Virus record (IMG/VR): IMGVR_UViG_2681813316_000023 | Span: 1 to 4,853 of that record | Reading direction: 5' to 3' (one strand) | Source: a virus | Taxonomy: Duplodnaviria > Heunggongvirae > Uroviricota > Caudoviricetes | Length of the DNA stretch: 4,853 nt | Shown here: positions 2,927 to 4,853 of the stretch, in pieces | Numbering within the stretch: position 1 is the first letter of the stretch | Layout: each line of letters opens with the position of its first letter | The notes under the pieces: generated by a model | What the model was told of the DNA's origin: nothing | Database searches by the model: none | Seen by the model: only the letters and a program-made list of their open reading frames with translations | Made by a program: the position numbers and the translations under genes

Positions 2927-2963
2927 TTTTAATTTCACTGAAATTTAATACGTGACTTTCAGG

Positions 2964-2992
2964 AAAATGCCTCGCAGATGCGGGGCATTTTT
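2964..2992 (+). terminator. Rho-independent terminator closing the lysis operon
   Basis: Stem tgcctcgc (2968-2975) / gcggggca (2980-2987) with one G:U, 4-nt loop agat, flanked by AAAA (2964-2967) and TTTTT (2988-2992). Confidence 0.7.
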
Positions 2993-3285
2993 GTACAGGT
3001 ATTTCACCGCGCACCGCAGTGCACTCAACCACGTCGAACCAAACCCTTTGGAATGAGCCTTTGAGTAGTCAGTTAGTGCTGGTGAGCCTTGACGGGCTGA
3101 TCTCCTATGCAGCAAAGGTTCATCTCAAAGTAAGGCGAACGCTATGACAAACCAAGATTCTATAGACCTATCTGATCTTCGTGGAATGGTCAGTTTTCCA
3201 GACAAAAGGTAATCACCATAGTCGTATGGCTATGAATCTTGTTGCTGCAGATAAGCATTTTGTGATTGAAGTGGTCAAATCTCTC

Positions 3286-3342
3286 AAATGCAGTAAAATG
3301 CAGTGCGCTATAATTCAATAACGGAGGGAGTAAGGAGAAGTC
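3286..3342 (+). promoter_or_regulatory. Putative promoter/operator and RBS of the island nuclease-like gene: tandem 9-mer AAATGCAGT x2, consensus -10 TATAAT, SD AAGGAG
   Basis: AAATGCAGT at 3286-3294 and 3296-3304 (10-bp register); TATAAT at 3309-3314; GGAGGG at 3323-3328 and AAGGAG at 3332-3337, 5 nt before ATG 3343. No clean TTGACA-like -35 was found. Confidence 0.35.
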
Positions 3343-3963
3343 ATGAAAGATCAAGATGTTAGGTTCGCGGTGCATCATAAGCTTTTGAAAGAATCGCATT
3401 TAGATCCAGACTGCCTTGTGGTCGATGAATTTTCCATATCCCTTGGCGCCAGTAGAGCAGACATTGCTGTAATAAATGGTGTTATACACGGGTACGAGCT
3501 CAAAAGTGAATATGACTCTTTGGAGCGTTTGCCTCTTCAAATCAAGCATTATTCTTCTGTAATGGACAAGGTTACTCTTGTCGTAGCTGAGAAACATCTT
3601 GAGGGAGCATTAAAGTTAATCCCAGGTTGGTGGGGCGTTAAAACGGTTTCTGTTGGGCCAAAAGGCGCCATTCTTATAAAGCACATGCGTGGAGAAAAGC
3701 TTAATCGAAACCATGACACATTGATGCTCGCTCAATTGCTTTGGAAAGATGAATGTATCGACGTACTTGAACGATGGGGCTATTCCAAAGGAATCAAAAG
3801 CAAGCCCCGATTTGAGTTATGGAATATTATTGCGGAAAATATTCCAATAGCGAATCTCAGGCTTGAAGTCAGAACAGCCTTAAAGAAACGCGTAGGCTGG
3901 AAAGTTAAGGCTTGGCAGGCTGAGTCTGCGCCAACCAATAAAGCTGTCTCACGACTAACGTAA
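3343..3963 (+). CDS. PD-(D/E)xK (restriction-endonuclease-fold, Hjc/Mrr-like) nuclease-domain protein, 206 aa, on an AT-rich island
   Basis: Long ORF in AT-rich DNA with a strong SD. Motif E29 (VVDEF) ... D40 (RADIAVING) ... E52-L-K54 (VIHGYELKS) is the arrangement of PD-(D/E)xK nucleases. The C-terminal ~110 residues are basic and Trp-rich with no motif I recognise. Confidence 0.75.
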   Translation: MKDQDVRFAVHHKLLKESHLDPDCLVVDEFSISLGASRADIAVINGVIHGYELKSEYDSLERLPLQIKHYSSVMDKVTLVVAEKHLEGALKLIPGWWGVKTVSVGPKGAILIKHMRGEKLNRNHDTLMLAQLLWKDECIDVLERWGYSKGIKSKPRFELWNIIAENIPIANLRLEVRTALKKRVGWKVKAWQAESAPTNKAVSRLT

Positions 3964-4774
3964 TATGGTGCGTATGTGCAACTTTACGCCATTCTTTAGA
4001 GCCGCCAGATTTGTTAGCGCCTAATGATCTTTGGTAAATGTAATCATCCCCCCAACTAAATTTGGAACCAAAGACTTGATACTCTGGCGAACTAACAAGG
4101 GTAGTACATAAGTTTTTAGTTTGGCCCCATCCATTTCCTTTAACTGCGGTACCTTTTACAAAGATCCATGAGGTATCGTTCGAATATCTCACTGAGACAT
4201 ACTGAGACATGAAGCGTGGGTCTACGCTCGTAATGGTAGAGCTAGCGGTGGGATAATCACTAAAACTTGGCGTTCTTCCATTGCTAAAATTCTGTACTAC
4301 GTACATCCAAAGATCGTATTCATGGCGCGGAATATGATGAACTTGATGTTGCGGTATCCCTGCCTGTGATGCTGGGTATGCGGTTGAAGATAAAATCAAG
4401 TTTCTCCACGGAGCTTGGCCTGATAATGTGTTGACCATGCTTAATGCTTGTTGTTTTAAACTATCAGTTGCGTTTTGAATATCTCCAAAATCAATGATTA
4501 CATCAATTAAACTAGGATGAATATTTAAGTGGTTAACCAGACTTGTGAATTGGTGCCATGTCTGGGGGGTGATAGATATAGCGAGCCCATTGATTAAGTT
4601 GCGTTGAACAGCATGTATATAGTTTGTTGAATATGCGGGAGAAACAACAGGGATAATTTCCTTACCATTTACTCTAGCATCTTGGATACACATATCTAGA
4701 GGATGATGGCGGCTCGAACCATGTTTATCTAAATATTTAACATCCAGCAAAACAGGACGATTGATCCTACCCAC
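3905..4774 (-). CDS. Hypothetical 289-aa protein on the AT-rich island, convergent with and 3'-overlapping the nuclease-like gene; function unknown
   Basis: 870-nt uninterrupted minus-strand ORF in AT-rich sequence, where long ORFs are unlikely by chance. First start is GTG at 4774 with no convincing SD (next ATG is codon 27), so the start is uncertain. No TMD or signal peptide; no motif I can assign. Confidence 0.65.
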   Translation of the reverse strand: MGRINRPVLLDVKYLDKHGSSRHHPLDMCIQDARVNGKEIIPVVSPAYSTNYIHAVQRNLINGLAISITPQTWHQFTSLVNHLNIHPSLIDVIIDFGDIQNATDSLKQQALSMVNTLSGQAPWRNLILSSTAYPASQAGIPQHQVHHIPRHEYDLWMYVVQNFSNGRTPSFSDYPTASSTITSVDPRFMSQYVSVRYSNDTSWIFVKGTAVKGNGWGQTKNLCTTLVSSPEYQVFGSKFSWGDDYIYQRSLGANKSGGSKEWRKVAHTHHITLVVRQLYWLAQTQPAKP

Positions 4775-4853
4775 GTAATATGGACACAGGCCTAAGCGAG
4801 GTTCTGGTTTTCAAATTGTTCCGGACTGAGGCCGCCACACCAACTGTGCCGCC

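Follow-up and report, generated by a model that had tools for sequence, protein, structure and literature searches.

A nuclease-like gene behind the lysis cassette

A small gene that follows the lysis cassette of a prophage, and whose product displays what looks like a PD-(D/E)xK active site, raises the question of whether it encodes a genuine nuclease and, if so, what that nuclease is for. The gene lies in a stretch of 4,853 nucleotides (the window), which belongs to an E. coli lambdoid prophage. The initial annotation, made from the letters alone, described a nuclease with its own promoter on an island of foreign composition, a typical effector candidate accompanied by a 289-aa partner. Its open reading frame (3343-3963, 206 aa), residue numbering and quoted strings are all correct and its interpretation is partly supported; it had missed that the protein belongs to a named family found in a published defence system and that the partner is truncated. 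Based on sequence, structure models and analogy, we propose with a probability of about 0.6 that the P4 cII-family nuclease and its partner Beta form a two-gene, prophage-borne anti-phage module, which would be disabled in the strain of the window. The gene and the features that precede it are:

345-620, P21-type holin
625-1614, DUF1327 protein, between holin and lysozyme
1657-2190, phage lysozyme
2489-2926, Rz spanin
about 2963-2992, plus strand, intrinsic terminator 3′ of Rz (13-bp G+C-rich stem, then UUUUU)
3272-3299, plus strand, candidate sigma-70 promoter of the nuclease gene (TGGTCA-16-TAAAAT; weak, 9/12 consensus match)
3343-3963, plus strand, P4 cII / sce7726-family gene, ATG-initiated ORF of 206 aa

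The ATG is preceded, at a distance of 6 nt, by an AAGGAG ribosome-binding site. The encoded protein is 100% identical to RefSeq WP_000654790.1 ("sce7726 family protein") and scores 184.1 bits against NCBIfam NF033832 (cutoff 70), with residues 1-183 covering profile positions 1-182 of 184. It is also matched by the PADLOC model "cll" (4e-31) and by phrog_984 (7e-52), and its homologues bear Pfam PF26915 Phage_P4_cII. Alignment shows that the 206-aa protein is homologous to P4 cII (NP_042034) along its whole length, with 27% identity and E 1e-18. P4 cII itself passes the NF033832 cutoff with 151 bits and, at 264 aa, is extended at its C-terminus by about 70 further residues. Judged by sequence, the 206-aa protein is thus a member of the catalogued P4 cII / sce7726 family and no unknown effector. 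An exhaustive search for relatives returned 3,733 clusters at 50% identity. Among 5,426 complete E. coli genomes, 127 carry the nuclease-Beta pair at an identity of at least 99%, and in these 127 the nuclease gene is annotated as "sce7726 family protein". An intact copy of the pair, flanks included, lies at about 1,430,300-1,432,600 of E. coli 55989 (NC_011748.1). Some homologues are named "regulatory protein" in databases, and one metagenomic homologue is labelled "MmcB-like".

The terminator behind Rz, which a simple terminator scan overlooked, has a predicted stability of -22.6 kcal/mol (z = -5.4), and none of 200 shuffled sequences was as stable. Because so strong a terminator follows Rz, read-through from the lysis operon into the nuclease gene is unlikely, which fits the earlier suggestion that the gene has its own promoter. 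The promoter at 3272-3299 itself is a candidate only, since shuffled sequences yield sigma-70-like matches at least as often as the region does. The lower G+C content on which the claim of a foreign island was built is real (0.40-0.44 over 3150-4800 versus 0.46-0.53 in the upstream lysis genes), but the shift is modest. Rfam gave no match anywhere in the window. In intact relatives of the prophage the terminase subunit genes come next, so the nuclease and Beta genes fill a cargo ("moron") slot.

Fold and invariant residues of the nuclease

The following features of the nuclease gene, all on the plus strand, are assigned from alignment and an AlphaFold2 model:

3343-3690, predicted N-terminal PD-(D/E)xK nuclease-fold domain, residues 1-116
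3427-3429 (GAA), catalytic candidate E29
3460-3462, catalytic candidate D40
3496-3498, catalytic candidate E52
3502-3504, catalytic candidate K54
3700-3912, predicted C-terminal four-helix SAP-like domain, residues about 120-190, with the motif LLWKDECIDVLERWGYSKGIKSKPRFELW

We aligned 129 sequences, comprising the query, 127 representatives at 36-48% identity and P4 cII. E29, D40 (within RADIAVING), and E52 and K54 (E52-L-K54 within HGYELKS) are each invariant in 129/129 sequences, P4 cII included, which takes the PD-(D/E)xK pattern proposed from a single sequence well beyond chance. R38, D58, R62 and Q66 are likewise invariant in all 129, position 70 is always Y or F, and an independent 87-sequence alignment (A1) again returned E29, D40, E52 and K54 as invariant.

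The AlphaFold2 model of the 206-aa protein, computed from the 129-sequence alignment, reaches a pLDDT of 90.4 and a pTM of 0.85. Its residues 1-116 form two helices, strands 25-32, 37-44 and 48-54, helix 63-73, strand 76-82, a further helix and two strands, and in this model they are the alpha-beta-beta-beta-alpha-beta core of the restriction-endonuclease fold, as the initial annotation had predicted. Strand 1 carries E29, strand 2 carries D40, and strand 3 carries both E52 and K54; going by the hairpin boundaries, E29, D40 and E52 would lie next to each other across the strands, and K54 and R38 would point to the same side of the sheet. D58, R62 and Q66-x-x-x-Y70 are borne by the helix that follows the ExK strand. 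A QxxxY motif in this place is one of two marks of the RecB / Cas4 / lambda-exonuclease branch, the other being closest fold similarity to it, and the 206-aa protein may belong to this branch.

Foldseek returned SfsA as the best match of the model, and solved PD-(D/E)xK structures with a similar core are SPO1766 (3dnx, which we take to be a DUF1052/MmcB-like representative), Can2, NucS, SdaI, PaqCI and SfsA. These nucleases have the core fold and the D...(D/E)xK residues on strands 2 and 3 in common with the 206-aa protein. They differ from it in showing no detectable sequence similarity, in the position of its first acidic residue (E29, on strand 1), and in both its domain partner (SAP-like) and its genomic partner (Beta). 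Neither the single sequence nor the family profile gave more than chance-level matches when searched against solved structures, a Pfam set without this family's own model gave no nuclease-family match at E up to 10 for any of 87 members, and membership of the Hjc, Mrr or NucS families in Pfam was not found. The likeness to Hjc/Mrr/NucS-type enzymes drawn earlier therefore holds at the level of the fold only, as there is no sequence relationship to solved structures or to Pfam nuclease families.

The C-terminal part had been described as a nucleic-acid-binding or partner-interaction module, and the model makes the former plausible. It contains a four-helix SAP-like domain in which N121, W134, E137 and R183 are invariant, the LLWKDECIDVLERWGYSKGIKSKPRFELW stretch looks like the SAP helix-turn-helix motif, and Pfam FANC_SAP gave a weak match in one family member. 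Of the strings pointed out previously, WW is found at 96-97, WGYSKGIKSKPRFELW at 145-160 and KRVGWKVKAW at 182-191; residues 191-206, encoded where the partner gene overlaps, form a low-confidence, disordered and non-conserved tail. The SAP-like domain probably binds DNA, as far as can be judged from the model. A SAP domain and a PD-(D/E)xK domain (VRR-NUC) are also combined in FAN1. There the domain order is reversed, and the 206-aa protein is without a TPR domain; the resemblance is weak and probably reflects architectural convergence, not orthology.

Could such a protein bind DNA without cutting it, for instance as a regulator of Beta or of neighbouring genes? Catalytically dead PD-(D/E)xK domains that only bind DNA exist, the name cII, given to the gene in the older P4 genetics, hints at a regulatory phenotype, and the database names mentioned above point the same way. 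The conserved overlap of the convergent 3′ ends suggests coupled expression, and the nuclease may be dispensable in a published clone of a related system (both described below). However, dead PD-(D/E)xK domains normally lose their acidic and lysine residues, whereas in the present family none of the four varies in 129 sequences of about 40% identity, nor does any of R38, D58, R62 and Q66. In addition, there is no HTH in the 206-aa protein, and the pair occurs in very varied genomic surroundings with no conserved target genes. We consider a purely DNA-binding regulator unlikely, and since the catalytic set is invariant, catalysis is favoured over mere DNA binding. From the alignment and the model we infer that the 206-aa protein is an active metal-dependent nuclease with DNA as its substrate. 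Our literature search found no paper treating the fold of the sce7726 family. This would give the P4 cII / sce7726 family a concrete biochemical identity that can be tested: four named catalytic candidates in a PD-(D/E)xK nuclease domain, joined to a SAP-like domain that probably binds DNA.

The nuclease gene is almost always paired with Beta

Downstream of the nuclease gene, the window contains:

3905-3963, overlap of the convergent 3′ ends, 59 bp
3905-4763, minus strand, Beta-gene remnant encoding residues 71-355 (the intact protein, a predicted TIM barrel, has 355 aa), converging on the nuclease gene
4764-4853, end of an IS3-family element that interrupts the Beta gene (junction about 4762-4764)

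As read in the window, the convergent open reading frame (3905-4774, minus strand) encodes 289 aa, and this is the partner of the initial annotation; it is in fact a Beta remnant that has lost its first 70 residues to an IS3 insertion. It matches Pfam PF14350 Beta_protein (4e-43) from profile position 61 onwards, whereas no NCBIfam model matches Beta, which may be the family named sce7725. In the intact E. coli locus (L001) Beta has 355 aa, the same length as P4 beta. The AlphaFold2 model of intact Beta (31-sequence alignment) has a pLDDT of 92.9, and a fold search with it found generic TIM barrels only and no specific enzyme relative. The invariant polar residues of Beta include Y6, E16, D77, D239, Y240, H335 and H336, and this conservation suggests that Beta is an enzyme.

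To describe the surroundings of the nuclease we used 80 loci, one genome per species, which were fetched by the nuclease and span Proteobacteria, Myxococcota, Firmicutes, Acidobacteriota, candidate-phyla-radiation (CPR) bacteria and others. Beta lies directly downstream and convergent in 77 of the 80, and once two loci cut off by a contig end are set aside, in 77 of the 78 that can be assessed. The pair is also present in phage Rac-SA53 and in P4-like satellites, and in the Gordonia phage DumpsterDude it is located just after the lysis genes. Nuclease and Beta are thus almost always paired, and prophages and satellites are among their carriers. Of 79 related loci, 77 show an overlap between the 3′ ends of the nuclease and Beta genes (median 53 bp; values from -39 to 158), across which antisense coupling is possible. 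No gop homologue was found in the intact E. coli locus or near the 80 related loci. The unit conserved across phyla is therefore the nuclease-Beta pair, of which neither gop nor HigB is a part.

Several details of these loci deserve mention. The region of 3′ overlap comprises the non-conserved nuclease tail and the C-terminus of Beta. The only genuine orphan among the 80 is in a Xenorhabdus koppenhoeferi prophage (L009 4414-6810), where the sce7726 gene follows an Rz-like gene and Beta is replaced by ORFs that, judged by eye, resemble a Ser/Thr-kinase fragment and a PP2C-type phosphatase. In DumpsterDude a full-length sce7726 homologue with 43.5% identity occupies L084 4001-4615, where GenBank annotates a small opposite-strand gene (gp32) instead, and the convergent gp33 matches a Beta-family HMM (E 5e-74). 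Upstream of beta, the intact E. coli locus has a 133-aa ORF on the minus strand, which we dismissed as an artefact since it overlaps the terminase gene and an IS3 end.

Relation to gop-beta-cII and PD-lambda-2

Two published defence systems contain relatives of these genes. The three-gene gop-beta-cII locus of P4 itself protects against lambda and P1, presumably by abortive infection, with gop being toxic and beta counteracting it (PMC9122126), and its killing is triggered by the gene orf184 of lambda-family phages (bioRxiv 10.1101/2023.04.06.535777); a 2024 survey still listed the gop-beta-cII genes as being of unknown function. The intact E. coli locus resembles P4 in that the nuclease gene is convergent with a 355-aa Beta gene and in that both reside on a mobile element. 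It differs from the three-gene set of gop-beta-cII (DefenseFinder Rst_gop_beta_cll) in that the cII-like and beta-like genes are present and gop is absent, and no same-strand ORF was found upstream of beta in this locus. Furthermore, a terminator separates the cII and beta genes in P4, whereas the two genes overlap in the window; the element of the window is a lambdoid prophage and P4 is a satellite; and Beta is only 22% identical to P4 beta.

The second system, PD-lambda-2 (Vassallo et al. 2022, PMC9519451), consists of a HigB-like protein A, an HTH-M78 peptidase B and a Beta-like protein C, of which B is toxic, A rescues, and C is needed for defence and dispensable for neutralisation (PMC9519451). 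The Beta of the window scores better with the PADLOC model PD-Lambda-2_C (1e-25) than with the P4 "beta" model (5e-7). The A and B genes of PD-lambda-2 are absent from both the window and the intact locus, which contain only the C-type Beta. Genes for a HigB toxin and an HTH-M78 peptidase are found upstream of Beta in 14 of the 80 loci (including L039, L049 and L061), and here PADLOC recognises PD-Lambda-2_A (1e-41), full-length _B (1e-150) and Beta as _C (1e-40). The published three-gene definition has no convergent nuclease gene in it (PMC9519451), whereas complete A/B/C loci in many phyla bear a convergent sce7726 gene at their C end. In the reverse direction, we chose loci from metagenomes and viral contigs by their B protein (L095-L186), 62 of which had enough downstream sequence. 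Beta was found in 37 of the 62, and 34 of these 37 also carry the convergent nuclease gene; in a further 3 the nuclease gene was found and Beta was not detected, and in 22 neither gene was found. Given 34/37 among the loci with Beta, PD-lambda-2-type loci of this kind normally carry an sce7726 nuclease gene.

With the pair as the conserved unit and an unlisted nuclease in most PD-lambda-2-type loci, the choice of genes to mutate in studies of such systems becomes a different one. The published PD-lambda-2 clone, which covers 228,989-232,396 of ECOR42 contig QOYB01000002, reaches 396 bp past the Beta-like gene, an end point that would remove the N-terminal third of a convergent nuclease gene. 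Should the ECOR42 locus have such a gene, the clone's defence against lambda-vir did not depend on an intact nuclease.

Beta is disrupted beside an intact nuclease gene

In the window, identity to intact loci ends at base 4763, and bases 4764-4853 match IS3 copies in thousands of records at 100%. The insertion takes Beta residues 1-70, including Y6, E16 and P33, all of them invariant, as well as the two strands that open the barrel; the module is for this reason most likely inactive in the strain of the window. The junction between IS3 and Beta occurs in 0 of the 5,426 complete E. coli genomes and intact copies match the remainder of the locus at 100% identity, which makes the insertion strain-specific and recent. 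The nuclease gene of the window is most likely a recently orphaned survivor, as read from these sequence comparisons. Beta is also disrupted in three other E. coli strains, in which the nuclease ORF is intact:

L091 3563-3985, Beta disrupted by an IS66-type element (RM10410)
L092 1563-3407, Beta disrupted by IS1 (NMBU-W12E19)
L093 1563-2631, Beta disrupted by a frameshift (PRO_A-1534)

The converse case, a broken nuclease gene beside an intact Beta gene, was not found among the 40 matches listed. We rejected the idea that this bias towards Beta is meaningful in itself, as all 4 of 4 events fall into a gene that makes up 63% of the target length (about p = 0.16).

The disruptions bear on how the two proteins might be connected. 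In a classical two-gene toxin-antitoxin system the nuclease would be a constitutively active toxin and Beta its protein antitoxin, and for this speak the tight two-gene linkage, which is typical of such loci, and the description of P4 beta as an antitoxin-like factor that counteracts gop (PMC9122126). However, Beta is disrupted in four independent strains (by IS3, an IS66-type element, IS1 and a frameshift) while the nuclease ORF remains intact and identical, and the two genes are convergent and not co-transcribed. Moreover, a 355-aa TIM-barrel protein with invariant polar residues resembles an enzyme and not a labile antitoxin, and PD-lambda-2C is not required to neutralise toxicity (PMC9519451). 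A toxin-antitoxin pair is in our view quite improbable, and these natural Beta knock-outs beside an intact nuclease ORF speak against the customary description of Beta as an "antitoxin".

The same four strains weigh on a scheme akin to restriction-modification, in which Beta would modify DNA and the nuclease would either spare the modified self DNA or cut the DNA marked by Beta. The TIM barrel of Beta is remotely like those of the DNA/tRNA transglycosylases DpdA and TGT. If Beta protected self DNA, however, it should not be found broken beside an intact nuclease ORF, and we regard the scheme as very improbable.

Finally, the nuclease might process DNA for the benefit of the phage, in recombination, host DNA breakdown or as a packaging aid, instead of serving defence. 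PD-(D/E)xK enzymes include phage recombination exonucleases, and in several prophages the nuclease gene follows Rz, between the lysis and terminase genes. That slot is nevertheless a cargo position behind a strong terminator, and the pair, with only 127 of 5,426 E. coli genomes carrying it, tolerates inactivation (RM10410, NMBU-W12E19, PRO_A-1534). It is also found in P4-like satellites, in chromosomes from CPR bacteria, Myxococcota and Firmicutes, and fused to HigB/HTH-peptidase toxin-antitoxin modules. A phage-beneficial enzyme is accordingly the least credible of the readings considered here, with hardly any likelihood.

A possible mechanism for the nuclease-Beta pair

In the defence module that we prefer, the SAP-like domain would tether the nuclease to DNA, which the nuclease would cut only once Beta, a phage trigger or both had licensed it. 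The intact pair, carried by prophages and satellites, would defend against superinfecting phages. Support for a defence role of the pair without gop comes from analogy, as gop-beta-cII (PMC9122126) and PD-lambda-2 (PMC9519451) are experimentally protective against phages in E. coli, a protection ascribed to abortive infection. The nuclease-Beta pair would be the shared core of gop-beta-cII and PD-lambda-2-type loci, to which some lineages would have added gop or the HigB/HTH-peptidase genes. Counting against the nuclease as the effector, toxicity in the studied relatives maps to gop (PMC9122126) and to PD-lambda-2B (PMC9519451).

The direction of control between the two proteins would be from Beta to the nuclease. 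Because Beta is found broken beside an intact nuclease ORF, we favour Beta as licensor or sensor, which for a TIM barrel without a specific enzyme relative is a guess. More tentatively, and at somewhat less than even odds, the Beta and cII-like pair may be an autonomous and very widespread immune module that works by an as yet undescribed mechanism, in which an enzyme-like TIM barrel senses or licenses a nuclease. It would then be the overlooked core of gop-beta-cII and PD-lambda-2, with gop and HigB/HTH-peptidase as lineage-specific add-ons and the nuclease as an unrecognised fourth component of PD-lambda-2.

Additional features of the lysis cassette

The DUF1327 gene of the window encodes 329 aa, of which DUF1327 spans residues 1-100 only, whereas the phrog_1085 match is full-length; the corresponding YdfR-family gene of the related prophage L001 encodes 116 aa. 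By comparison of these predicted proteins, the lysis cassette bears a variable C-terminal extension on its DUF1327 protein. Between lysozyme and Rz lies an 89-aa ORF (2218-2487) with a hydrophobic C-terminal segment and no Pfam match; at this position a related locus has only a 45-aa hypothetical protein annotated. Within Rz, in another frame, ORF 2661-2873 encodes a signal similar to a lipobox (LLGVSAC) and a stretch rich in proline, which we take to resemble that of lambda Rz1, and this ORF is likely the o-spanin Rz1.
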